DNA of 64,000 nucleotides, taken from contig CM102286.1 in the NCBI GenBank assembly GCA_046563655.1, forward strand, positions 12,276,001 through 12,340,000, in the 5' to 3' direction. How positions within the stretch are numbered: position 1 is the first letter of the stretch; each line of letters begins with the position of its first letter. Both the position numbers and the translations under genes were made by a program. Below, in pieces: positions 1-41,232 of the stretch. The DNA comes from Yuukianura sp. NJ FZ-2021 (lineage: Eukaryota). Under the pieces are notes generated by a model. That model worked only from the letters and a program-made list of their open reading frames with translations. It ran no database searches and was not told the DNA's origin.

Positions 1-3000
1 ACCTTCCAGGGTCCACTTGGAACTTCGTACAATCCGGTTCACTGCAATTACGTACAGCATAGGCGATTGGAGCAATTGTCCATGCAATTCCGAGTCCCAA
101 GAAGACGTTGACCGCGTTACTTCCAGTGACGTTTCCAATTGAAGCATCCGCATATTCGTCTTGGACAGCAGACACTTTACTTGCAAATGTATCTAAGGGT
201 GAACAAAATTCAATTGTTAAATTTAATCAATACAAACCAGCGTGCTACGTATGCTTGCTGGGGCTTCGCGCAAGTACCGTTCAAACGTCCTAATTTTTTA
301 GGATAACAATTAATTTTTTCCAAAAGTAATACACTAGGAAGTTGGAATATGCCATAATGTTTTTAAAAAAAACATAACTTTAGAAGATCTTAGTTTCTCA
401 TAAATGAGGAAGTGAAGTTTTTAGAGTTTTCCGGAACTCCGATACGCCGTTACAGAACCGGAATTACATCTCCCCTATAACTTCTCACTAGTATAGAACA
501 GATTAATTCTTAACTTTAATGTTACCTGGAATACTGGTCCCAACAGCTACAAAAGTAATTGCGGTAATAGAGTCCTTCAAACCAACGGTACAACCAAAGT
601 GACCTGCTATATCACCAATGATCTAAGGAAATCAATTTTTTATGTTTAAAAAAATCAAAAAATTCAGATAATTTTTTTTTTCAAATTCTAAGTTTTTTTT
701 GGCAGTTACCGCAGTCATCACTCCGATAACCAGAATGGAAACGACGAAAGCCACGTACCCACCGCACATGTCTACAAATCATATTTTAGAACACCAATCG
801 TTTCCGGACGTGTTCAATTGAAAAGGAATTTTACCCGCGGGGGGAACAAAAGCTGCGAGAATTTTCCAAAACAGAGTTAAGAAATGCAGGATGTATTCGC
901 CAAATGAAGGATACGTTATTGGTTTTTCGGTTTCCTCGTCGCCATCTCCCTCGTCTCCGCCATCTTTATCGTCAGAAGCAAAAAGAACCAAGTTGAGAAC
1001 AATTTAAATCAGTTGCAATGGAGTACAAGAGCTTACCATCGTCATCTCCTCCAACTGTTAATGCTTCGATGAATTGGCCTTTCCAGGTAGATTTGCCAAC
1101 AACTAGCTTTGCATTGGCACGCTGAAGCAACTTGTCAATCGTCCCCTAGAAAACAAATTCAAACCTTAAATCGAACAATGTTGGTTGTAAGTTTTAATTT
1201 TCAATCCGACAAGAATTTGACCTTGAACTGTTTGCTTTCGGTCAGCCGAATCTGCGTTCTTGAATCTGGACCAAGTTTTGGCCAACCTTCGGCTGCAATC
1301 AGTTCAGGCTTGTTCATGTCTTCCTTCTTCTTTGCTTGCGGTTGTACCATTGGAGCGTCATTTGCTGCAAAAACGACAAATTTTAGTCAGAATACTAGAT
1401 ACTTCCAGTATATTACTCGGAATCCTTACCATCCAAAGGAACAGCTTTCGAAAGTTGGACATAAAAGAGAACATCTTTCTCGTAAGTATCTTCGTTGATT
1501 ATAGGAATCTCCAGCGATTTTCTATAAAAAAAACTTGTTTTAACAACTCTGAATGAAGACACATAACGTTTGAAATTGTTATTTTTCAGTAATTTCATGT
1601 TTACTCTGTTTCACCGTTACGGAAAATGACCTTCCCACGAACGGATTCGTAGTCCTTACCAGCCTTGGCAGTTCCGTCAACAGTGTGATAGCTAACCTGA
1701 ACTGAACCATTAGCTCCAACCCAACGCTTGACCTTGACTACCACTGTACCAACGGATTCCGTAGCCGCGATATCTTTGTCCCGAAAACTGAATACACCAC
1801 AATGGTCATCATCCAAAATTACAACAGTGGCGGACCAAGGTTGGATCAGTTGGACTTCTTCCGTTTTCCCAGCAGCGGTGTAACCTAACAGCCCAGCCAG
1901 TTTTCCAGGAGTTCGAGGCTGGCCAAATCTTGGTCGACTCAAGTGGATGTAGAAGTGTTCGTCTTCTTCAAATACGTCGTCATCAAAAATCTAATGTCAA
2001 AACAAGGTTACACAGATAGATTTTTAAGCTAAATTAGCAACAATTAAAATGGCCGAAGTAATACTTACAGTCTCTCATTGTACCACCTCGGTGTTAAAAC
2101 TAAGCGTAAACCCCCCTATCGTATCCCTTTGGTGGCAAATTGAGTCTCATTCTACCCCCAGGTTTGGTAAACATTGGTTTAATGACCTGACGTACGTTGC
2201 TGGACATAACTTAAATTTTGGATTTTTGAATTTCCAGCGACAGATTTGTGTAGGCGATACAATGAGGGACCATAAGTCTTATTTCAACCGTTAAAATTGT
2301 TCACCTTGATTTTGATCGTCTTGTGCGTTTCTCCCGGTGAGAATGTCAAAGTACCGCTAGTCGGGGCATAATCGGAATCTGCTGATGCTGAGCCGTCTTG
2401 CGTTTGGTAGTCAACCATCACAACATGATTCAAATCCCCGCCACGCCGACGTACCGTGACATCAAATGTGTCCACACTCTCCAATACAGTATAATGGCCC
2501 GGGTTAAAGTAAACCCCAGTGACATTCGGTGGCAAAGGCTCTTCTACTTCTGACTTCCGACCCTCCGCATTCGATAATAAATTCGACACAGATAGGTTAG
2601 ATTTTGAAAAAACTCCAGGTTCCTTAATCAACTTCCGGGTAACTTGCATTCTGTAGAATGCTCGACTCTTTGGTCCTCGTTTATAGATTTCTTCTTTCGT
2701 TAGTTGTTCCAATTCTTCGGGAGTTCGATGAGGAAACTTCTGACGTAACTTTCGTAGGAGGTGGATGTAGTCGCGACGGGATTGTTCAAAATCTCGAACT
2801 TTCTCATCGGATGACTCCTCTGCAAAGGTGTGCATATCGTGCGTAGAATCAGCTTCGAAACTCACACGTTCTCCTGCGATAATGACTCCACGTTTGTCCA
2901 GCCGAAAAGCTGTGTTCCTCCTCCTCCAGGACTTGTAAATGCGCCGATCAGCGAAATACGCTGTGGCCACCGTCAGCGGAAAAAAGAGAAACGTAAGTAC

Positions 3001-3795
3001 TCCTTCCCAGATATCGACGACTCCTGTAGAACATAAAGCACATAATGAAGTTACAAATAAAGTTAAATCTTAGTTAAAACTCATACAATAACTACTAAAC
3101 ATTGATTCAAACCTGGAGTAATGACTTTGAGGATCAGGAAGAGCCAAATGTAAGCAAAGACTGACCAAGTTGCAGTGACGAAGAAGACGTTCAAATGTTT
3201 GATTGATCGAATTTCGCCGTCCGGAATAACTGAAATACAAATGCCAATGATACAAAACAGATTGAATGCTGCAGATCCGACGATCGTTCCAGGTCCAAGT
3301 TCGCCCGAAGATTCGAATTGTCCCTTCAACACTTTCCCTGAGATTTCGATAACAGAGAGCAGAATTTCTGGAGCAGATGATCCGAGAGCCATCAAGGTCA
3401 AATTCGCCACAGTTTCTGAAAAATACGAGTTCCAACGTTTATTTTATTTTTAATTGAAGTAAAAAGTTCATCGTTTTACCGTTCCAAACTCGGGCGACGA
3501 CAATTTGCGTATTTCCACCCGGTCGTTTGATCTTGACTTCCGTTTCTTTGGATGTGATGACCTCAATGGCTCCCATGAAACGATCCGACATTATGGAAAC
3601 GCCAAGGAAAAGGTATATCATGGCCAAGAAATATGCGAATCCACGCATGGCCGTTTCCATCTTGGATAGTTTTTCCTGCGGTGTCCAAACAGGGAGAACC
3701 AGTCCAGGTTGACATTTGGCTCCATCTACACAGTCAAAAAGTGAAACTGAAAGTGTCACTAGTAAGAGTGACACAACAATGTTGAGTGCTGCCAT
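1..3795 (-). CDS. Na+/Ca2+ exchanger (NCX/SLC8, Calx-like) paralog A; multi-exon, last exon lies off the left edge of the window
   Basis: ATG at 3795 ([12 protein letters not shown]..., signal-peptide like). Alpha-1 repeat [10 protein letters not shown] (3081..3410 ORF), Calx-beta domains (2284..2970, 1601..1942), alpha-2 repeat GTSIP|D and [18 protein letters not shown] introns keep frame where checked. Confidence 0.93.
2066..2274. mobile_element. Degenerate MITE (CAGT...CTCATTG end type) inside an NCX-A intron
   Basis: Imperfect inverted ends tacagtctctcattgtaccacct / aggcgatacaatgagggaccata, similar to the ends at 14640 and 24819. Confidence 0.45.
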
Positions 3796-4068: not shown

Positions 4069-7000
4069 TCAGAAACCTCCGATGATATCATAAGCTTCAA
4101 GGCTGGACAAGACAACATAGAAAATCCAAAGGAAAGCGAAGAGAATTGCAGTGGGGTATTTGTATCTTGCCGGTCCTCCCAACTCTCCACCCCCAAACAC
4201 TCTGAAGCGTCTGATCATCATCACCGTGATGCCAAGCACGGCACATGCGCAGAACACAGACACGGAAAATGCAAGGCTAAAATGCAAACATTGATTAGTA
4301 CTTAAGATGTTTCAAAAACGTTTTTAAGACGTTTTAGAAAACTAGTAAATGAGTATCACCTTCCGGGATCAACTTTGAAGACATCACAGTCTGGAATTTC
4401 AGCGGTGCATGTTTTAAATGCCTTCACAATTGCCGCCAATGTCCAAGCAATTCCAATTCCCAGAAAAACGTTGACAGCATTACTGCCAGTAACATTCCCA
4501 ACGGATGCATCGGCATACGGATCCTGAACTGCTGCCACTTTACTTGCAAAAGTATCTAAAAAATTAAGCTTCAAATTACCATTCTCATTGGAGCACACCA
4601 CGAAAGCTTCGGTTTTCGAGCAAATTTTTATGCACTAATCAGTTAAATGGGTAAAATAAAATTTTGAACAAAAATTTTGAAAATTTGAACCAACTTACCA
4701 GGGACGCTTGTTCCTAAAGCTACAAAAACGATTGCAGTAACAGAGTCGTGGAGACCAACTGTACATCCAAGGTGGGATGCAATATCTATAGAAATTAATT
4801 AATATTTTTAATAATTTGTTATAATTTATAGTAATTAGAAAGTGCAATTTAGGTTTTAACTTGAGTGTTAATGGTTTACCTCCAATGAAAGCCGTTAGAA
4901 CGCCAATGACGACAATGGACACGACAAATGTCAAGTAGCCATCCCAAATGCCTGCAACATTAAAAAATTTATTGAAATTAATATTTTGAATTTCAAGTTA
5001 ATTTTTTGAATAATTTTTGAAATTCAAACATTACTTGTTGGAGGAACAAAAGCAAACAGAACCTTCCAGAACACAGTTAAGATATGAATAACGTAATCTC
5101 CAATCGTGGGTGGCTTCCGCTCGCCGCCTTCCTCTTCCTCGTCTCCTGTTACAACAGAATTTCAAAATTTCAGAATTTTTAATTTTTTATTCAACATTTT
5201 TTCAAAAAAAAGAAGAAAAAACTGGTGTGACCTGTGTCCAGTGTAACGGCGTCGATGAACTGTTCTTTCCACGAGTTAGTTCCAACTGCGGCCGTAGTGA
5301 TGTTTTTTTGAAGAAGGTGGTCAACAGCGCTCTAAACATTTAAAAAAACAAAGTTTTTAGAAAATGTTAAGTTCTTGTTTTGAAAAAAAAAAGCTTGCCT
5401 TGAACGCTGGGCTTTCTTTGATTCGAATTGCAGCTCGTGTTTTAGCTCCTAGTTTTGGCCAACCTTGAGCCGCAATTTGATCGTCTTTGGTCCTGATATG
5501 TGTAGGCAGTTGCATAGGAGTTTCATTTTCTAAAAAAAAATTGAAAAAAATCTTGAAAACGAAAAGCCAAAATTGTTGAAATTTCGACAATAATTTTCAC
5601 AATGTCAATTGTTTGTGGCGTACCGTTCAATGGAATCGGTTCCAAAATCTCTACGTAAAAGTCAACATCTTTCTCGTACGTATTTCGTTCAAGTATTTGA
5701 ATGGAAATTACTTTCCTAAAATTCGAAATAAAACCAATCAAAAAATATCAAAATTTCAATTCTCGTTGGAAAATTTTTTCAAAATTGAAAACTTACTCAA
5801 CTTCATTGTCTTCAAATTTGATTTTTCCTTCAACATGTTCGTAGTCCGAACCCTCCTTTGCAGTACCTTTTATCGTCCGATACGGAATCAAAACTTTACC
5901 GCGCGCACCACTGGCACGTCCAACTTTAACTTCCAGAATACCAACCGATTCGGTTGTTTCAATTTCCGTTTCCGGGAGATAAAACATTCCCATGAAATCA
6001 TCATCTACAATCGTCACAGTCGCAGATGAAGCCGTTCCAAGTTCAACTTTTTGCGCCGTCGCTGATCCGTCACTGCTCAAACCGTTTCTGTCACTCGCTA
6101 GTCTTGCATTGCTCAACCTGATGAAAAAATGTTCATCTTCTTCAAAAACATCATCATCCAACACTTCCATTATAATTTCCTTGACATTTTCATGTGGACC
6201 GAATGTCAACGTCCCACTGTGTGGAATGTAGTCATTGTTTGCCGAAGCAGTTCCATCTGCCGTAGCATAGTCAACTAAAACCGTTTCTTTTGAGTTCCCG
6301 CCTTGCCGAATCACTGTTACCGCAAAAGCACCAACATTTTCCATGACAGTGTAGCGATCTGGACTAAAGGAAATGGAAATCGTTTGGTCCGACAAACTCT
6401 TGGCATCTTCATGGGGAGATACCAAGGTGTATGGACTTTCCTGTTGTAATGCTTTATGTAACTTCTTGTTCAAATTTTGACTGTTGACAAGTTTTCTTGT
6501 TGCTTGGATACGATAGAAGGCTCTGCTTTTTGGCGCTCTGTTGAAAATCTCCTCTCGAGCAAGAACTTCCAGTGACTCCAGATCCATATTGGGATGTTTG
6601 TCTTGTAATTCCCAGAGGAGTGCAGCATATTGCTTTCGATTTTGCTCAAATTGCTTAATATCAGCGTCTTCTATGTCACTTAGAACGTCGGTTCCTTCAA
6701 GCGGCATTCCAAGTTCAGTATTGGCTTCAGTTTCAACAATGACGCCACGTTTGTTGAGTCGATAACTTTTGGTCAGTTTGTCCAATTTGAGCAGTTTCTT
6801 GTCAGCGACGAAGGCAGTGAGGACGGTGGCAAAGAAAAACAAAAATGTCACCATTCCCTCCCACACTTCAACGATGCCTGGAAATTCAAGATACCGTTTT
6901 CCGAATAACAACAATGCCGAAAATATTTTTTCAAACATTAGCTTAATTTCTAATGATTGACAGATTTTAGACTATTCTCACCTGGACTAATGACCTTGAG

Positions 7001-7898
7001 AATGACGAGAAGCCAAACGTAAGCAAAAAGTGACCAAGAGCAGGTCACGATAAAGACGCGGAGATGCTTGATCTTGCGTACTTCGCCGCTTGGAATTGCA
7101 ACAATGCAAATGGCAATGATGATGAAGAAGTTAAACGCTGCAGAGCCAACAATCGTTCCTAATAGAATTTGAAAAAAAATAGGTTACAACTCAAAGTCTA
7201 GCTTTTGTTTTGAATTTTTGAAGACCCAAAAACCAGAATGGCATCTCCATCTTGTGGAATGACGTCACCCATTTTTCAAAATTTTGAAATTTTACTACAA
7301 AATTTTGTTTTGGTTACACACCAGGTCCAAGCTCTCCAGCCTCAAAATCTTTCCCAACAATTTCAATAACGGAAAGCAAAATTTCCGGAGCAGAGGAGCC
7401 CAAGGCCATCAGCGTCAAATTTGCAACGGTTTCTAAAGAATTGGAAAAAATTTAAAAATTTGCAGTCAAAACTTTTTATGCTGAGATAACATAAAAGATT
7501 TGGGTCAAGAAATATATGATTTCTGGAGTCTTTTCGTTTGTCATTTTTTTTATTCTCTCCAAATTTTGTTACATTTTTTTTGTTCACAATTTCTTACCAT
7601 TCCAAACCCGTACTGTAACAGGTTGAGAAGATTTTTTGAGTTTGATTTCTTTTTGTTTTGAAGTAATTACTTCAATTGCTCCCATAAATCTATCAGAAAT
7701 CACTGAAACTCCAATAAACATGTACAGAAGAGCCACAAAATACACCGCCCCACGACCTATGACCTCCCAAGTACTCAAGTCCTCTTGTGGTTCCCACGCT
7801 GGCAAAATCAGTCCCGGTTGGCATTCAATTCCATAAGCAGGGGTCAAAAAAGTAAGGAGTGCCAAGGTCAATGACCCCAACCAGGTCACTCGCATCAT
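4069..7898 (-). CDS. Na+/Ca2+ exchanger (NCX/SLC8) paralog B, complete, multi-exon
   Basis: ATG 7898 ([12 protein letters not shown]...[13 protein letters not shown]), GSSAPE, two Calx-beta domains in ORF 5793..6938, [17 protein letters not shown]-terminal GGELGGP...IGGF* with stop at 4069-4071. AATAAA immediately downstream. One GC-AG intron, 5332-5398. Confidence 0.95.
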
Positions 7899-9427: not shown

Positions 9428-12400
9428 TTAAAATCCTTCAATGTAGTTATACGCTTCTAACGTGGACATTAAGACGTAGAAGACCCATAGACAAATGAAC
9501 AAACATGTAGTTATATACTTAAATTTGTTTGGCCCGCCAAGTTCACCTCCACCAAACCTTCGAGAGCGACGGACAAACATGACTGCTATGGCCACCACGG
9601 CGCAGGCGCAGAACAAGGTCACTGAGAATCCCAAGCTGAAATCACAACCAAACCATAAAAATTTCACCGAAAAATGTGTATTTCGATCAAATAAAATGTG
9701 AAATTCGACTTAAAGGAGCACATTTGACATTACTAAACACGAGGGCAAAAATTCAGGTCAAATTTTTTGTTTTTTGTTTGTTTGTTTTTTAAATTCATCA
9801 CCTGCCGGGAGGTACTATGAATCTCCTTTCGCAATCATTCTCGTCAGGACAAGATTTGAAGGCATGAAATACTGCTGCAATTGTCCAAGCAATTCCAATT
9901 CCAAGGAAAACATTGACAGCATTGCTTCCAGTTACATTCCCAATGGATGCATCCGCGTATTCGTCTTGGACTGCTGCCACTTTACTAGCAAACGTATCTA
10001 AAGTGTGACAAAAAGTTCAACAAAAATATTAAAAAAGTAACCATAATTTATTCTGGAAGCAACCACGGAAAACAACTTCTGCTTCTTTGGGAAATCTATA
10101 GCAAAAGCAACAGGTTTTCATGCAAGGATCATAAAAAGTGCACCACACTTTGAATAAGTAAGCGGCACTTTGAAAAAACCTTTGGAGCACTTTGTACTGA
10201 AACAGAAAATTGAATATCCCTTTGGCGTCACATCAATTCTTCCTGGACTTTGATTTTACTTTAGCATTTAAGCCAAAAAAAGTTAAAAGCAAAAGTTTTT
10301 TCCATTGGCACACTTACACTTTATAGTACCCTTGCATGACACCAAATTACTTAAAGTGAGCACGAAAAATGAGAAGTTGACCATGAAAAAAAGTTTGGAA
10401 AATGGTCATAAATCAGAACAAGGATGTGTATATTATTATTTACCTGGAACGCTGGTTCCTAAAGCTACAAATGCAATAGCTGTTACAGAATCGTGGAGAC
10501 CAATGGTACAGCCCAAGTGAGACGCAATGTCACCGATGAAAGCTGTGAGTATTCCGATTACCAGGATTGACACAACGAAAGTCAAGTATCCACCCAAAAT
10601 GTCTATGGACACAAAAATAACATTACAACGTAAGTGGAGCATTACGGTAACAAATTGGCTAACACTATTTTTCTAATTGTGGAACAACGTCGGACATTTA
10701 GCCTAAGATTTAAGTATTCATGAACGATTATAACATGGGAATTAGACCTAAAACGAAAACTTCTCAATGAGAAGCTTTCCATTTTCTTAGCCAAAACAGA
10801 ATTTTCCAAATTTTCCGAAATTGAAGAAACATTTTCCAGTTCCCGCAAGAAATTTTTGCAAACTGCAGAATTGGCAAGACAAAGGTCAACGTTAAGCCAA
10901 AATTGTTGCTCAAAATTGTTTTCAAAATTTGAGTTACAAAAAATATATTACTTTTCTACTAGAAATTCATGTAAAGCCTCAGTTTCTTGCGAGAGCTTAA
11001 AAAATGTCTGTTTTGAAATAATTTGTAAGAAGTGTTTTTAGAACCGAACTTTTCCAGAATTTTGAAAAGTTATTCCCTGGAGAAAGTTAAGGTTAAGACG
11101 TGCTCTGAAGTTTAAGTTTAATACAAAATTGTAATCCTAGAAAGCAATTTTGAAAATTTTGAAGAGTTTTTCCATACCTGTGGGTGGGACAAATGCGAAG
11201 AGGACTTTCCAGAAGATCGTTAGAAAATGCATGGCATAGTCTCCGCACGAAGGGCTTTTCATCTCATCATCATCGTCATCTCCTCCTTCAAAAAGAATTT
11301 CCAAAAAGCTTTACATAAATTGAACTTTGTATTTTCAAAATTCTGCAATTTTAGAGTAAAGGCGCTTTAGTTTCAATTATTTGTTGAACTATATGAAATT
11401 TTTATTCAAAAGTTGCGTTAAGAACCTGCGTTGACTGTGATGGCTTCCAAAAATTGTTCTTTCCATGAAGAAGTTCCGACCAGTAGGGAAGCATTGGCAC
11501 GTTGAAGAAGTTTGTCTACTGTGTTCTAAAAATTGAAAAAAAGATTGAAAAACTATAACTACCAACATTTTTTTTCAACTAACAATGAGTACTTTCTTCC
11601 AAGTAAATTTGCAAAATTGGAAACATTCTTTTTTAATTTCAACTCTGGGTTTCGGTTTTGAAAAATCCAATTTCCGTTATTACACTTTAGGTAGTAAGTA
11701 CAATCCAGTAAACTTCTTTTTGAATAAATTTTGGATATTATCTTTTTCCTTTTTGAATTGGTTTGTGAATTGAAGTATACTTTTTTTAGTAAAATTCGAC
11801 GAGAATAATATTCAGAAAAGGATTTCATATTTCAGTAAGCAGCTCTCCAATATCTAAAGGAATGGAATGAAAAAAGTTAAGTAAAAGTGAAAGTTTCCGG
11901 ACGTACTTTTTGGAAAAAAAAAGGAAGTGGACTTATTTTCGGTTTTAAACGTAGAGTTTTGCTTTCGCTGGCGGCACTAAAAATATTTTGACATTACTCA
12001 GACTTGGACGAGCACTTTTCCATTTTTCGAAAACATAAATAAAAGTTTAATGAAAAAAAACACGGCCAAGTAAAAAAAAATCTAAACTAACGATGCGATT
12101 TCAGTAGACTGAAAGAAAAGTTTTTTTTTTTGAATTTACGTAACAAACGACAAAGGGCAAACGATATGGATATACCAGTATCCATGAATCCATGTTTCAC
12201 AACATAAAGGTTGTTCTCATCAAAATGCTATGTAATCCGATACATTTTTTAAAAAACTGTTTCGCAACAAAATGCGATTGGCATTTTGAATAACTTTCAA
12301 ATTCAGGAGTTTCAGCAGCTCCTTGTTAAAAACTATTTCTGAACTTCTTTGTAATTCGGAGTTGCGTTACCTTGAATTCTTTACTTTCTTTGACGCGTAT

Positions 12401-15400
12401 CTGTGCTCGTGTGTCGGGTCCTAGTTTTGGCCAGCCCTCCAGCGCAATTCTTTCGGCTTTAGTCATGTCCGGCCTCTTCTCATGGGAAAGTGGAACACCA
12501 TCGTCTAGAATCAAATGAAGAAAAAATGTCACTTGGCAACCCACTACATCCCATGACGCTTTCAGTGCTCAAACGAGGACAAAACTTTATTTTAAAAGGC
12601 GGGTGACAGACATACAGCAAAGACTTTCACATAAAATTCCTTACCACCCAACGGAATTGGATCTGAAATCTCAAGGTAGAACAAAACGTCCTTCTCATAA
12701 CTGTCTTCTTCAATAATTGGAATTAGGATGACTTTTCTGCAAAAGAGAAGAAAAAGGAAATTATTAAAAATCACATGCTGGTGGGAACTAATCAATAAAA
12801 TTTTGAGGCACAACGCACTCAATTACGGTGAAAATTACCACATACGTGGTCCCTCATAATTTCAAGTAAAATTGAAATTCGATAATTTTGAATTTCAAAT
12901 GAACAATTTTCAGTTTGCTGGAAAGCGACCTTATTTCACTTTTATTTTTGTTAAAACTCGATAAAGTTTAAATGTTAGGTTAAAATTTAAAAAAAAATCA
13001 TTCTCAAAATTTGTTGGAGAAAAAACTTAGTTTTTCATTTTTTTAACACCTTTCATCTTGAATTTTTCAACATCTTTCTAAAACTAGGCAAAACTTAACA
13101 AAAATCTCTCAGGAATTGGAAACTATTTTCAAACCAAAAATTCAAAAAAGAATAAGAAATTTTGAAAAGTATTAAAAATGCTTACTCTGTTTCATTGTTT
13201 TCAAACAGCAGATTTCCTTCAACGTGTTCGTAATCTTTTCCCGCTTTGGCTGTTCCCTCTATTGTTGCATACGGAACCCAAACTTTCCCGCGTGCGCCGC
13301 TCCACCTACTGATTTTCAGTTCGAGGTGTCCAACGGATTCCACCGTTTCTATGTCCTTGTCCACCACGTTAAAGATTCCGCCATGGTCATCGTCCAGAAT
13401 CATAACAGTAGCAAGGAATGGATGCACTAATTTTACATCACACTGATTCTGTTTCAGTTGATTCCCTGATCCACCGTTGGCGTTAACTCCACTAAGCCTC
13501 CTCTGTGCTAAGCGCGCATGATTCAACCGAATGTAGAAGTGCTCATCCTCTTCAAACACGTCGTCATCAAGTACTTGGATGCTGATTTTCCTTAGAGTTT
13601 CGCCTGGGCCGAAGGTCAAAGTTCCCTCGACCGGAATATAGTCAGCTTCGGCCGAAGCTGTGCCATCTTCCGTTTCGTAGTCAACGAGAACGACTTGGTT
13701 CAGGTCACCACCGTGACGCCTCACCGTGACATCAAAGGTTCCCACGCTTTCCATGACAGTATAATGTGGTGGATCAAAGAATACAGTAGTAAGGTGTGGA
13801 TCGACAGGTTTCTCAATGTCTTCGGTTGGAGTATCAAGCTGATCTGTCGATTCCGAAGCTGCTCGCAGCATCCGTTTCATGAGATTCTGCCCCGAAGTGA
13901 GTTTGCGCGTAGCTTGCATTCTGTAAAACGCTCGACTTTTAGGCCCTTTGTTCAGAATTTCTTCCCGAGCTAAGGCTTCAAGGGCCTCCGTTTCTGCATT
14001 CGGGTGTTTCTTTCTTAATTCTCGCAGCATTTTAATATAATCTCGTCGGTTTTGTTCAAATTCTCGGATATCGTCGTTCAAGAACTCCTCGTCGAAGACT
14101 TTAAGTCCACTTTCCGCCATTCCGGCCATCTCCATGTGAGCCTCACCTTCTACAATAAGTCCCCGCTTGTTCAATCGGTACCCTTTGCTCAAATACTTGT
14201 AGATCAAGAGCCTTCGGTCAGCAATGTAGGCTGTAATGACTGTGGCAGGGAAGAAGAGAAAAGTGACTAGACCTTCCCAAATGTCAACAACGCCTGGAGT
14301 TGTGACCTTCAGAATTACGAGGAGCCAAATGTAGGCAAAGATTGACCACGTAGCAGTTACAAAAAACACTCGAAGATGCTTTATCCTCCGAACTTCACCT
14401 TCTGGAATTACGTAGACACAAATGGCAATAATAATAAAGAGGTTGAAAGCGGCACTTCCAACAATGGTCCCAGGGCCAAGTTCACCAGAGTTAAAGTTCT
14501 TTCCAATAATTTCTATGACAGAGAGGAGGATTTCGGGGGCTGAAGATCCTAGAGCCATCAGCGTCAAATTTGCTACAGTTTCTGAAAATCAAACCAAAAA
14601 CAAGAAAAAATTTACAAATAAAAATAAAAAAAATTATGACAGTGGAACTCCTCATTGCGAAATTCTTAGCTCCGCCTCTCATGACGGCGGGATACCATAA
14701 AACTTCAATTTTTGTAGAGATTTGGCATAAAAAAAGACGCTGTGGATGGTAAGTGTTTAGTTAGAGACAAACCAACCAATCAGACCGCGTTTCGCAATGA
14801 GAGCTTTTGGTGTAAGTTTGGAGGCAAACGTGTTTGTAAAAGTACATACAAAAGTACATACATTTGTATTACAAATATACAAATACTAAAGTTCGAAAGA
14901 AAGCAAGTATACTATTAAAAATCTTTTTGGAAAACAGCGATTTTTTTGTTTTAGAAGTGCAACGATGACCTAATAGTGGTACCACTCTACTGGTCGGAAT
15001 ACGTATTCCGATACGCAATGTTTAGCCACAGACTTCCTGTGATTGTGATCAATTATCAGTTTAATAGGAAGCTAATAATATTTTGTTTTGTTACGTTTTT
15101 GAATGAAAATTGAAATTTATCCTCATCTACATTAGAATTTTCTTATAAGTTAAGAAATTTTGTACTTAAAGGGTTGGGCTTAATTATTACAATTAAGCTC
15201 TAGACATAGACGAACACAAGCAAAGAATTTCCCCCTAAATTAGTCACGCATAGTCGGTTTAGTCTGGATAAAATTTTCGTATGTTTGGTCACAATGTTAG
15301 TACAGGGTGGGTTCGTATATTTGTTACCCAAGTGAGACGAAAAGAAAGCCTCACATGCGTTTTAAATGAGAAGAGTGAGAGGAAGAGAAATGTGGGTAAA

Positions 15401-16301
15401 CAAATATACGAGCCCAACCTGTATCTGTATTTTCTAAAAAAGAAAAATTAAATATCAATTTAGTTTTACTTTCTCCTTACCATTCCAAACCCGTACAACT
15501 ACAATTTGGACTTCGCCGTTTGGTCTCCTGACCGTAATTTCCTTTTCTTTTGATGTGATTACTTCGATTGATCCCATAAATCTGTCTGATATGATTGAGA
15601 CTCCAATGAACATGTACAGCATTGCCAGAAAGTAGACGACTCCACGAGCAATTTTTTCTCCAGGGTCTAAGTTAATTAAAAGAGACGGTGAGTGAAACGT
15701 ACTCTGATTCTAGAAATTATTCGTACCGTTACTGTAACGGAACCTCTAAGAATCCGTTCTTATTTTTTACAATTGAGCAAAACATGTCTCTGGAACGGAT
15801 TCTGACTAGGGCTCGTGACAAACAGCAGAAGTAGCATTAATTTAAACCGTCGAACTCGTTCAGAACAAGTTTTGACCACCACTTCCTATGTTCACACTCA
15901 GGCCATATTTTCAGAACAAAGATAGCGATGTTTAGAACGTGTTCAGAACGAAGTTAGCGATGTTTAGAACATGTTCAGAACAACCATAACGATGTCTAGA
16001 ACACATCGTTAAGTCCGATTCATTTTGTTTCGAATTGTTTCACTTTGTTTAAAACTGCACAATACGTTGCACCCAGAATACAAAACGCACCGTCATGAAC
16101 CTACAGTACCAGTATTATAGCTAGAATCGTTTTCTAGAATCAGAGTACGTTTCACTCACCGTCTTTAAATTGCGGTTGCCATACCGGAAGGATAAGTCCC
16201 TCTTGACACCCCTTCTGTTCAGCTACTTGCAGAACAGAGAGATTAAGGAGCAGGGTCACCACGCCACCCACTGGAATTGGCCCCACCCCCTCCAACTCCA
16301 T
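9428..16301 (-). CDS. Na+/Ca2+ exchanger paralog C, the most canonical Calx/NCX-like copy, complete. First coding exon is split by a transposon-derived intron at 15667-16159
   Basis: Probable ATG 16301 ([19 protein letters not shown]...[13 protein letters not shown]). Exons 16160-16301, 15481-15666, 13186-14581 (GSSAPE, XIP region [14 protein letters not shown], Calx-beta domains), then seven further exons ending YIEGF* at 9428. Confidence 0.93.
14640..14812. mobile_element. MITE, same family as 24819-25128
   Basis: Inverted ctcattgcgaaa / tttcgcaatgagag. The right part (accaatcagaccgcgtttcgcaatgagag) matches the reverse complement of 24827-24860. Confidence 0.6.
15301..15423. mobile_element. 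Tc1/mariner-type MITE with TA target-site duplication
   Basis: TA-CAGGGTGGGTTCGTATATTTGTTACCCA ... TGGGTAAACAAATATACGAGCCCAACCTG-TA; ~28-bp imperfect TIRs. Confidence 0.8.
15683..16164. mobile_element. Non-autonomous TIR DNA transposon (TTAA target, AG...CT termini; Kolobok-like) inserted in the NCX-C coding exon and predicted to be spliced out
   Basis: Perfect 34-bp TIRs: agacggtgagtgaaacgtactctgattctagaaa (15683-15716) and its reverse complement (16131-16164). TTAA at 16165-16168 and at 15672-15675/15676-15679. The NCX reading frame is continuous across the reconstructed empty site. Confidence 0.88.
15910..16003. repeat. ~32-bp tandem repeat x3 internal to the TIR element
   Basis: Unit ~gttcagaacgaagttagcgatgtttagaacat repeated head-to-tail without spacers. 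Confidence 0.8.
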
Positions 16302-16341
16302 CTCACCCAAGGTTCCTATAGCAACGAAATAGTTTTCTTTA

Positions 16342-16548
16342 ACAGGTTAGGCAATAAGTACGTTCGTCAAAAAATCTTGCGGCCAACAACCCCGCCCCCC
16401 CCCTCCCGTTTTCCTCCAGTCCCAGTCCCATATTCGATTACATACAAATCATTCATCGTCATAGACAATAACGGGAGGGGGGGGGGGGGCAAGTTTGCTA
16501 ATTATTTTTTAACAAAATTTAGAGAGTTCGAGTTATTGCCTAACCTGT
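16342..16548. mobile_element. Foldback/MITE-like element in the NCX-C 5' intron
   Basis: Perfect 16-bp inverted ends acaggttaggcaataa / ttattgcctaacctgt, plus an inner inverted pair gccccccccctcccgtt / aacgggaggggggggg. No clear target-site duplication. Confidence 0.65.
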
Positions 16549-19500
16549 CGAAGAAAAATTTATTCTTGTTTACGAACCTTGATCTCACCACTGACGCTGT
16601 GTTAGGTTCAGGTCACGAGTAGGTCACGGGGTCATGGCCTTGGGGCCTGAATGGCAGCGATTGGTCCATTTCCAGCCGCACTTTAGCACATCAGCTGTCC
16701 TGAATCAAGAACAAAAAGTGTTAAACGATTAAAATGGCCCACTTTTGTCACTGAAAAGACAAGATCAAAGAAATTCAAAAAAAGACTGACGACATTCGAG
16801 CCAAAAAGTTTTACAGCTCTGTACAGCCGTATCACAAAAACCTTCCCAAATTACAACATTCAACATCACGCCGTTGTTGTATTTTGAACTAAATGCCCGG
16901 ATTTCATGTTCCTCTGATATTCTTTAGCTCCATGCCCATGCTTTCGTGTTTGCAGGAAGCTTTGTGCTCTTGCAAAAACCAGCTTCGTTTTTTTCCCGTT
17001 CAGCCAAACCAAAAATTAATGCTCAGCAAAACCTACCCAGGTCGGAGAACTTTTTCAACAAAATTTTGGGACAGTTCCAGAATTTTTTTTTTGTTTTGAA
17101 CCTCGGTGCTTGCTGATGCTAGTTTAAAGAAATCTAAACGTGAATATCCCGCAGTCCAAAAAAGTAAAATAAAGACAATAGAATGATGGGGCGGTGACGC
17201 TGACATACAAAAGCAGAAGAGAATTCAGAAAATAAACTTTGGTGAAAAGACAATAGTCGAAACTTTTTAAACTGGCGTTACTACTCTCTTCTGTGGTTGC
17301 GTCCACAAGGAGTGACTGTTCCGTTCAAAAAGTTTTAGTTTTTTGTAAAGTTAGCACTTCTGTAGAATCCGAGAGCCAAAAAATTTAACTCTGAGACTAA
17401 ATTGAAAACGACTTTGAGAAATTTAGTTCAAGCGTAACAGCGATTTATCTCTTCATTCGTTTTTAACACACTAATGTTATCAACTTAAACAAAATTTTGC
17501 AGCTTTTTTGTTGCATCACAATGCAATCTAAACGTCTAATGAAATGGAAACTCTTCATAGTGCTAAGTGCTAAACAAAATAACTTTTAGACATAGACTGT
17601 CTAGTGTAGTACCTCAGTAGTGTTTGGCATGCATGTCAATATCCACTTGTAATCCATCCATAACATGCCACTTCTTTTACCAACACAATCAAAAAATAGT
17701 CGTCCAAGTTGAAAAGCGTGACCTCTTGAAAGAGAAGTGCTTTTATTGGCCTACTTTTGTGTTTTTAAGACTAGACACAATTTAGGATGCGTCTTAAAAG
17801 CAAAATAGCCGTCAAAAAGCAAAATAGCTGCAAGTCTTTTTAGTAAAATGTTAACAAAACCTAGCCTAACCAAACCTTTCACCAAGCACGCAGCTCCATT
17901 ACCATTTTAAGTCCCCTTTTATAGTTACTCCCACCAAAGCTAACGGTTTTTGTGGACTTTCACTTTAGGGAAACAGGGAACCTGTTCCACTTTTCCTAAG
18001 GCTCCTAAACTCAAAAAAACCAAAAACAAAGCCTTACTTGAAAGCAAATTAAGCTATACGAGAAGACACAAAATTGGAAGAGACAGGAAGCTTAAGCGTG
18101 GCGGGAAGGTTTCAATGGCCTTTTCGTTTTAATACAAAAATATACAAAGCTGGTGTTAGAAAAGGCAATGCATTTTGAATCCCTTTGTTTCATGGAGGTC
18201 GTTTTCTGCAGTGTCTCAAATTTTAGTAATTCGGTTTTCCTGTGTTCTCTGAATACTAAAATTTCTCAAAACCCAAATCCCCTTAGTGCCACACAGGGGA
18301 CTTTCTCTATTCAAAAGCTGTGTTAAAAAGTAAAGCCCCAATTCATTTCTCATTTGGCAATTTTAAACTACAAACAAGAAACAAAGTGGTGCTCTAATTT
18401 TTATTTTCCCACTTTCCACTAAATGACTAAATTACATATTTTGTTTCTAGTTTTTCAACTGCTGTGCTGTTTCTAGTTTTCTCACAGCCTATTTCTTTTC
18501 TACTTTTTTTCAAAAACTATTTTTGAAAGACCTGTTTATTGCTTTAGTTCCATATAATGTGTAGGCTGGAATTGAAAGTAACGAGATCCTGTAAAACGAA
18601 TAAACGAAGCCATAGAGCAACTGTAGAAGGCCAAATGTCACAGAATAAACATTTTAGATTGAAAGTCAGCGTATTCGTGGGAGAAAATAAAACGGATTTG
18701 GTTTAAATCGCTTCACTGTCTGTCATGTCACACTTTGAACTTTTAGAGACTCTTTGTTTACAGTATAACAAAAGGTTTTCAGTGAGAACATGCCGCTTTT
18801 ACTGAAAATGACGAAGCGACGGGATCAGCGGTGTCTGGAAGAGAAAGATGGAGCAACAAGCATCACAGTCACACAAAGCGCTGATTCAAAACGAGAGCGA
18901 AAAAAATTTCATTGGGCTTAAAATAATTCGAGACCTAGCAAGAATACCCGGGAATTCAATGAACATATCACAACACCCACCGATTTCTTTTATACAGTAC
19001 AACAGAAGGACACTCTTTGGCCTCCAAAACTACCTGGCCATGAAATCGCCTGCTATTTTCATTTTTATATGTCCAATTTCAACAACAACATTTTTGGCAA
19101 ACAATTCAATTTCGAAAAGAAAAACAAATATTCTGGCCGTAACAGCTCTAATTTGAAATCAATTTGTTCTTTCACAAAATTTTAAATTTTTACATAATTT
19201 AATAAGGATTACAAAGAGCACTAATGCAAAAAAAAAATTCTTTTGTAAATTTCCGAATCGTGCTCCTCTTTCAAAAGAAAATATAATTCAATTTACAAAA
19301 AAGGGTGGGAGATAAAGTTAACTTGCACTTTTGAAAGACACTTCCTCTTTTTTTCAAAATTAAGTTTTGCTTTTTGAAATTTTGAAATTCAATATCAAAA
19401 GAAAGTTTCAATCTATGTATTAGTGTTTAACACTTTCATAAATTTCCAGGGTCACGTGAAAGCACGATTTTTTTTTAGACAAATGCAGAAAATAATTTGT

Positions 19501-39827: not shown

Positions 39828-40198
39828 TATCGAGCTCTGTGGATATAGGGTCAGGGTGTCTCCCGGCGCGGCAACTTTGAGTTTTATTTCATCCTCTTAA
39901 TTTTTGATTCTAAAATCAGCGGAAGAACATCTAATCAGCAGCTCCCGTTCCCGTTACATGTAAGTTAGGCTGTCCCGTCGGTCGTATCTCGTCGTCATCA
40001 CTTCGGTTGTTCGGTATATCTTGCCAGTGTTCTTGGACTGTTCGTGGAGTAAAGGTTTCGCACTTACAAACGAAGGTAAGTTGACCCCACTCCGAATTTC
40101 AAATATGGATTTGCAATTGATTAGATATTGCGTTGGGTTTGGGTAATTATATTTACCATAACTTGATAAAGTTTTTGATAACTCACAGAATTGTCAAG

Positions 40199-41232
40199 AT
40201 GTTGGGCCAGTCTAGTCGGATTGTCGTGATCGTATCACCATGGAACCAACAGTCTCGTGGAATGGCCACACTGAAGTCAATCTCTCTCCGATTGAAGTCA
40301 GTCAAGAACATTCAAAAGATCACACAATCCATGAAGATGGTGTCGGCTGCCAAGTACGCCAGGGCGGAACGAGAACTGAAGCTGGCCAGGCCATTTGGAG
40401 AGGGAGCTAAAGCGTTCTACGAAAAGGCAGAGGTTGCAGCGCCGGAAGACCCTAAGGCACCCAAATTGACTGTTGCAATGACATCGGATCGTGGTCTTTG
40501 TGGAGCTGTTCATTCTTCTGTTGGAAAAGTGATTCGAGTAAGTTTAGCATTCATTTCACCATACTTTTCTAACACTTCCTTTGGGTTAACCTTGTGTTTC
40601 ATGTTTATAGAACGATTTGCAAAACGCTGCCGACTCAACCAAAATAGTTTGCGTGGGGGACAAATCACGGTCCATCTTACAACGTGTCTTCAGCCAGAAC
40701 ATCATTCTTGCTGCGAAAGAAATTGGACGAAAGGTTCCATCATTTCAGGTTTGTTTTTTTGCTAACTAAACAGCAACAACTGTTCATAAATGAAAACTAA
40801 ATTGCTCACGTTTGTATCAACATTTACTTAGGATGCTTCGAAAACAGCCCAAGCCATCCTAGATTCAGGATACCAATTTGAAGGAGGGAAGATCGTCTAC
40901 AATCGTTTTCGATCCGTCGTCTCTTACGCTACTACGGAAATTCCCATCTTCAGCATAAACGCGATCAACGCTGCTCCGAAGCTGACGGTCTACGATTCGT
41001 TGGATGCTGACGTCATTCAAAGCTACACGGAGTACTCCTGGCTTCGTTGATTTACTACACAATGAAGGAGAACGCATGTTCAGAACAGTCATCTCGCATG
41101 ACAGCTATGGACAATGCTAGCAAGAACGCTGGAGAAATGATTGGCAAATTGTCCTTGACATTCAACAGAACTCGCCAAGCTGTCATCACCCGGGAGTTGA
41201 TTGAAATCATCTCTGGAGCTTCGGCATTGTAA
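40199..41232 (+). CDS. ATP5F1C: ATP synthase F1 subunit gamma, mitochondrial (apparent 1-nt deletion near 41037)
   Basis: [75 protein letters not shown]. Three coding exons. Confidence 0.95.

Follow-up and report, generated by a model that had tools for sequence, protein, structure and literature searches.

The origin of new spliceosomal introns in animals is still debated, and few animal introns are documented to have been made by a transposon. Exonic transposons that are spliced through sites in their own ends are known from maize, where Ds and dSpm insertions behave in this manner. The introners of Chrysochromulina sp. bring their own 5′ splice site and recruit a 3′ site from outside the element (Gozashti et al. 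2022, PMC9860276). Among 3,325 genomes surveyed, introners were reported from only two groups of animals (PMC9860276; PMC11282704). For arthropods, the literature covered here contains only a mention of a copepod (PMC9860276). Another route has been described in C. elegans and human cells, in which exonic DNA transposons are cut from the mRNA independently of the spliceosome (SOS splicing; Zhao et al. 2025, PMC12779559). According to that report, SOS splicing depends on AKAP17A, CAAP1, and RTCB and is triggered by the pairing of the inverted ends, its junctions lie near these ends and are heterogeneous and rarely GU-AG, and gene function is rescued only if the product is in frame and the affected region is tolerant (PMC12779559).

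[quoted passage not shown] The locus is a young exonic insertion of a miniature inverted-repeat transposable element (MITE) that may have a credible route to an intron, and it is of a kind that is already known. As in the maize cases, a single exonic insertion may be partly rescued by a donor in the end of the element and a nearby acceptor, in an animal host here and in a plant there. With the Chrysochromulina introners, it shares a short insert resembling a DNA transposon, a duplication of 4 bp (putative here), a candidate donor inside the element, a candidate acceptor outside it, and, on paper, a frame that is kept on removal (PMC9860276). It differs from them in that one genic copy is at hand and its splicing is a prediction, in that the candidate acceptor is outside both the element and the duplication, 5 nt into the host sequence, and in that it comes from an arthropod-like animal, a setting in which introners are rare as far as that account goes (PMC9860276). 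In the tunicate Fritillaria borealis, animal introns were likewise gained from miniature inverted-repeat elements, but the ends of most of these introns are non-canonical and require a modified spliceosome, whereas the candidate described here is GT-AG (PMC11282704). Exon insertions of Tc1, Tc3, and Tc4 in C. elegans are also cut-and-paste transposons with pairing inverted ends in an animal coding exon, and the gene may keep its function through removal near the ends at the RNA level, which leaves small changes (PMC12779559). As described there, such removal is imprecise and rarely GU-AG, whereas a canonical GT-AG pair and a branch site are available here (PMC12779559). The present locus is a presence/absence pair, occupied in one organism (organism A) and empty and in frame in another (organism B), and it predicts one precise junction, 16160 joined to 15666. 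As the candidate donor and branch site lie inside the predicted stem of the paired arms, the locus can separate spliceosomal removal from SOS excision.

Three NCX/Calx genes are arranged in tandem on the minus strand of the window (approximately 2-3726, 4072-7826, and 9431-16301), of which the first is truncated by the window edge and the third, copy C, carries the insert. In the large exon, copy C was approximately 67% identical to a reference homologue, compared with approximately 46-54% for the other two copies, and by this comparison it is the most canonical and orthologue-like of the three paralogues. A tblastn search with the homologue P0003 aligned copy C over residues 13-907 of 907, and the insertion in exon 1 was the sole place where the reading was broken by a stop or frameshift. 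In the protein search, the best matches of copy C were arthropod NCX proteins (65-68% identity), and the named relatives were those of springtail, barnacle, mayfly, and water flea (58-68%). Thus, the host is an arthropod-like animal. None of the matches in this search came from the host organism itself, and thus none was an annotated model of this gene. Both other copies were uninterrupted at the insertion point (HSPs 7826-7320 and 3726-3457). These two paralogues have more numerous and shorter introns than copy C, those of the middle copy being 67-165 nt long, and their N-terminal motifs are diverged (WEPQEDLS... and WTPQEKLS...).

The minus-strand reading of exon 1 is ...W Q P Q F K D G E followed by a stop (ORF 16152..16346), and the exon picks up again 0.5 kb downstream in ORF 15455..15709. 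The last five bases of the upstream exon part (AGACG, 16164-16160) are derived from the element. An alternative start codon that would save the downstream exon was rejected, as ORF 15455..15709 has no methionine ahead of the first membrane helix. The intervening insert is 0.49 kb long and non-coding, measuring 482 nt between the outer ends of its arms and 489 nt between the flanking TTAA copies (Table 1). The inverted arms are 34 nt long, 100% complementary, and 414 nt apart; a perfect inverted repeat of this length is far beyond chance. A Pfam search of the three ORFs of the element gave no family above the cut-off, and an Rfam search over 15000-17000 matched the element to no RNA family. No second copy was found within the window, and a 28-nt piece of the inverted end had no match in metagenome contigs. 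With a length below approximately 800 bp, terminal inverted repeats, no transposase, and several copies in the contigs described below, the element has the features of a MITE. The original prediction, made from the letters of the window, had placed a transposon with terminal inverted repeats in a coding exon of an NCX gene, and the arms, the flanking TTAA, and the two exon halves were all found where it had put them. Its description of copy C as otherwise intact and the most canonical copy, with paralogues lacking an intron at this point, was borne out by the alignments above.

Contigs from organism A (X1-X3, one sample) and organism B (X5, one sample) were compared with the window over 15200-16700. 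Seven additional bases at one end make the ends of the element asymmetric, and its exact termini and duplication are therefore ambiguous. The alignments of two other family copies (X2 record 12 and X5 record 27) begin at 15681, and a 5-nt direct repeat (TTTAA) also flanks a 484-nt version of the element. Directly abutting duplications of 5 nt (TTTAA) or 3 nt were considered less likely, since they imply an ancestral exon that is 4 nt longer and contains a stop, which is contradicted by the in-frame site of organism B. As only the TTAA reading matches the length of the empty site in organism B, TTAA was preferred as the likelier duplication.

Table 1. Positions in the window of the interrupted NCX gene copy, the inserted element, and the candidate splice signals (5′ and 3′ refer to the gene orientation).
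Feature	Position	Strand	Remark
NCX/Calx-type gene, copy C	9431..16301	-	start codon 16301-16299; last coding exon to approximately 9431
Exon 1 coding part 5′ of the insertion	16160..16301	-	ORF 16152..16346; signal-peptide-like N-terminus ... WQPQFKD
TTAA, upstream copy	16165..16168	-	putative target-site duplication; sequence reading
5′ inverted terminal repeat	16131..16164	-	carries candidate donor G/GTGAGT, GT at 16159-16158
Proposed GT-AG intron	15667..16159	-	493 nt, equal to the net gain over the empty site in organism B
32-bp tandem repeat inside the element	15910..16003	.	2.9 copies, 85% matches
3′ inverted terminal repeat	15683..15716	-	branch-site matches CTCAC (A 15689) and TTCAC; AGs at 15710, 15704, and 15702
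Seven bases CTTTTAA between the 3′ arm and TTAA	15676..15682	-	sequence reading
TTAA, downstream copy	15672..15675	-	putative target-site duplication; sequence reading
Host AG, candidate acceptor	15667..15668	-	first AG past the candidate branch site, 5 nt beyond TTAA
Remainder of the interrupted exon	15481..15666	-	DPGEKIARG... first transmembrane helix ... VRVWN, then donor GTAAGG

The piggyBac elements target TTAA and typically have CCC...GGG termini. In the element described here, TTAA is present, yet the termini are AG...CT, and piggyBac was rejected. Kolobok elements and their MITEs combine a TTAA target with purine-purine (RR, often AG) termini in the account used here (PMC6004289). The upstream end, TTAA followed by AG, fits this definition exactly, and the downstream end is TTAA followed by AA... 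or AG..., according to the terminus that is chosen; a putative TTAA duplication and RR terminal bases are thus both present. Kolobok-like is used here as a label for the element, drawn from TTAA and the AG/RR termini rather than from a demonstrated membership. The T2-MITEs of Xenopus, which are non-autonomous Kolobok elements, are similar in their TTAA target, AG termini at TTAA, short length, and non-coding content, while the element described here has seven extra bases between the arm and TTAA at one end (Hikosaka et al. 2018, PMC6004289). The likeness is one of target and termini; an autonomous Kolobok partner would encode a THAP plus DDE transposase between the same ends.

Diverged pieces of the element were present in the contigs of both organisms (for example, X1 records 3 and 6; X2 records 12, 13, 15, and 16; X5 records 27 and 28), and X3 record 18 carries a piece of 478 nt with 10 other letters and 7 gap letters. 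The summed contig depth, which is not a copy number, was 632-3746 in the element bins of X1 against 154-218 in the flank contigs, and 34-149 against approximately 5 in X5. From these depths, the family may number from several to some tens of copies in each of the two organisms, in the order of ten. The family looks low-copy; two neighbouring small inverted-repeat elements reached a depth of approximately 30000 in X1, far above that of the element. The original prediction of a non-autonomous DNA transposon with terminal inverted repeats and TTAA, belonging to a multi-copy family, agrees with the perfect arms, the Pfam result, and these diverged pieces. X5 record 27 is a contig of 2105 nt with a depth of 122.8, compared with approximately 5 for single-copy pieces; on 15681-15980 it holds half of the element only, with unlike sequence on either side, and could represent either a longer related element or a copy that lies within a different repeat.

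The insertion itself is real and more recent than the split from organism B. Unbranched contigs of flank-like depth cross the upstream junction from the arm into the exon (X1 record 7, 16135-16328, depth 218; X3 record 23), and since contigs of the read sets bridge this junction, an assembly artefact was ruled out. No joint corresponding to the empty site was found in X1-X3 among the 15 joints listed of 33, and the insertion appears to be the sole allele in the sequenced sample of organism A. In organism B, X5 record 26 agrees with the window at 95% of letters over 15473-15674 (10 of 202 differ) and links 15674 to 16170 with 2 letters between them, the element being absent. The net insertion in organism A relative to organism B is 493 nt. 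The minus strand of the organism B exon reads W-Q-P-Q-N-N-L-D-P-G-E-K in frame and uninterrupted, and the spacing from W to G is 16 residues, as in the paralogues and in 111 of the 120 homologues. As this contig is uninterrupted, organism B has neither the element nor an intron here, and there is no old intron at this position. The original prediction had proposed a search for the empty site in other organisms and had named an old intron as the finding that would speak against a new one; the in-frame empty exon in X5 record 26 has the length that was reconstructed, and landing in an old intron was ruled out. The contigs of X1 and X2 differ from the window at 15566, in the interrupted exon (G>A, at all depth), and at 15449, in the intron beside it (T>G, in part of the depth); hence, the reads come from a sample that is not identical, letter for letter, to the assembled haplotype.

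The candidate donor (GTGAGT at 16159-16154, preceded by G) lies 5 nt inside the upstream arm, and the candidate branch site CTCAC lies in the downstream arm with its A at -23. The host AG just past TTAA serves as the candidate acceptor. A local set of 19 introns was inferred in NCX copies B and C for comparison; 6 of the 19 are doubtful because the junction search was automatic, and the resulting consensus is rough. Within this set, no local donor matched the U1 consensus better than the candidate donor did, and the candidate acceptor, with 15 pyrimidines in 20, stood above the local median of 13 and in the upper part of the observed span (10-19). The candidate acceptor is TAG, and the local acceptors were TAG, CAG, and GAG in 11, 7, and 1 cases, respectively; the candidate intron length of 493 nt is within the local range of 67-899 nt. 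This length equals the net insertion, and removal would therefore restore both frame and length. An in-silico join of 16160 to 15666 gave a product of the same length as the reconstructed empty site. In the unspliced RNA, a stop is reached four codons into the element (GAC GGT GAG TGA). When the first AG was located for all 828 TTAA sites of the window, it was in frame for 37% and length-neutral, as here, for 35 (4.2%); the 17 TTAA sites in NCX coding exons included one more length-neutral site besides the real one. A host AG at exactly the length-neutral position is thus a moderate coincidence. The element itself brings no acceptor, and in-frame removal therefore depends on the host sequence at each site. 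In contrast to the acceptor, the other two signals are built into the ends: GTGAG in one arm is necessarily CTCAC in the other, such that a donor and a branch site are available in either orientation.

The predicted spliced product would not be that of the empty site, as Asn-Leu is replaced with Lys-Asp just ahead of the first membrane helix. For the homologues, residues were counted in the 111 of 120 sequences that matched the pattern, with the 9 outside it being left out. The Leu position was occupied by Leu in 106 of 111 and by Ile in the other 5, where the product would have Asp, and the Asn position was occupied by Asn in 81 of 111, where it would have Lys. The Leu is retained in both paralogues, in organism B, and in the reconstructed empty site. 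The donor, branch match, first host AG, TTAA copies, and frame arithmetic of the original prediction were all confirmed by position, whereas its statement that the element would be spliced out with no change in protein length stood in part: the length is equal on paper, but two residues would be changed.

Two additional features may hinder clean removal. A 34-bp stem formed by the arms was predicted in both the MFE and the centroid structures, and the fold was more stable (-181.9 kcal/mol) than the shuffled sequences (-129.3 ± 5.8; z = -9.05; none of 100 shuffles as stable). In the model, the stem pairs the candidate donor with the candidate branch site; it would sequester both and could block U1/U2 or draw other pathways. 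Furthermore, use of the competing AGs at 15710, 15704, and 15702 in the 3′ arm would give frameshifted and stopped products. These AGs have weaker pyrimidine tracts (9-10 of 20) and are preceded by a branch-like CAGTAAC, as read by eye.

We tentatively prefer the reading in which the spliceosome removes the 493-nt stretch, at least partly, a reading that is a serious possibility while falling somewhat short of probable. [quoted passage not shown] The spliceosome would excise 493 nt from at least part of the transcripts, and excision would return frame and length with Lys-Asp in place of Asn-Leu before the first membrane helix. The outcome would be a one-off nascent intron in a probably weakened allele, buffered by the two neighbouring paralogues. 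The locus is accordingly worded here as a candidate for a nascent, possibly hypomorphic, transposon-derived intron. An unlikely but weighty alternative is that removal is inefficient or out of frame, that transcripts stop and are degraded, and that the splice-like signals are coincidental, which would leave a null or strongly hypomorphic allele in an animal living on the two tandem paralogues or on an unseen intact allele. The immediate in-frame stop, the predicted hairpin that buries the donor and branch site, the competing AGs that yield stops, and the change of an invariant Leu even in the best-case product all speak for such an allele. Two more NCX copies within 12 kb could make it tolerable, and an insertion with 34/34 matching arms that is absent in organism B is too young for further decay of the gene to be expected yet. 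However, copy C is the conserved, orthologue-like copy, whose loss is less expected; the insertion looks unbranched and at full depth in the sample; and a random exon insertion would bring less than this combination of a consensus donor, a branch site, a clean run of pyrimidines, and a first AG at the length-neutral position (4.2% by chance). If neither kind of removal occurs, the locus is an ordinary young knockout of a canonical NCX gene in a three-copy cluster.

Removal by SOS splicing, in which pairing of the arms within the exon would lead to spliceosome-independent excision near the ends and RTCB ligation, with mixed junctions of which some are in frame, was considered improbable. Its sequence requirements, as reported, are an exonic DNA transposon with base-pairing inverted ends and dispensable internal sequence, which the insert provides, and non-autonomous elements are among its reported natural targets (PMC12779559). 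The 34-bp stem predicted in both structures would suit it as well. Nevertheless, the system was shown in C. elegans and human cells and not in arthropods in that report, the Tc1 ends tested there were 54 nt long compared with 34 nt here, and SOS sites are rarely GU-AG, whereas a canonical GT-AG pair is present at this locus (PMC12779559). Beyond the single locus, the ends of an arthropod Kolobok-like MITE family that encode a GTGAG donor and a CTCAC branch site would make any insertion a ready-made intron that needs only a nearby host AG. We consider this family-wide reading decidedly improbable; if it were true, the birth of an intron would have been caught in an animal while the empty site is still present in a sister organism. 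The stronger claim of a dedicated introner family, of which many copies are introns, has only a slight probability. The intron-generating family suggested in the original prediction is derived solely from the symmetry of the ends, GTGAG/CTCAC, by which either orientation would be usable. The family has multiple copies and occurs in both organisms, and introners with terminal inverted repeats, 4-bp duplications, one carried site, and one co-opted site are known (PMC9860276; PMC11282704). These points are set against the absence of an acceptor in the element, which leaves approximately 37% of TTAA sites in frame and approximately 4% length-neutral, and against a depth that is not a copy number but suggests copies in the order of ten, compared with approximately 30000 depth units for the neighbouring repeats. 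In addition, gene placement is known for one copy only, that at the present locus, and the 835 genomes of animals and land plants in the account cited yielded introners in no more than two groups of animals (PMC9860276).

Other inverted-repeat elements lie close to the interrupted exon. An element at 16322-16568 (arms 16322-16357 and 16533-16568, 81% complementary) is located approximately 20 nt upstream of the NCX start codon, and the summed depth of its arms in X1 was approximately 30000, or approximately 150 times that of the flanks. In both organisms, numerous contigs lack its inner 130-230 nt; therefore, most copies of this family are shorter. Inside it, a G-run and a C-run form another inverted repeat (arms 16382-16410 and 16470-16498, 83%). 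The Rfam matches at 16385-16497 were sub-threshold microRNA-like or hairpin-like ones only, the best scoring 25.9 bits against a cut-off of 95. Intron 1 of copy C contains an inverted-repeat element of approximately 123 nt (15301-15423; arms 15301-15325 and 15399-15423, 92%), and its raised depth in X1, with a maximum of 2476, points to another MITE family. Farther along the window, the region 24000-63000 is gene-dense with short introns. By-eye reading of its ORFs indicated a polynucleotide phosphorylase-like gene (approximately 24.2-27.2 kb, minus strand), a GCN2-like kinase (approximately 30-36 kb, minus strand), an ATP synthase gamma-like ORF (40121-40765, plus strand), and a ZPR1-like zinc-finger gene (approximately 41.8-43.3 kb, minus strand).
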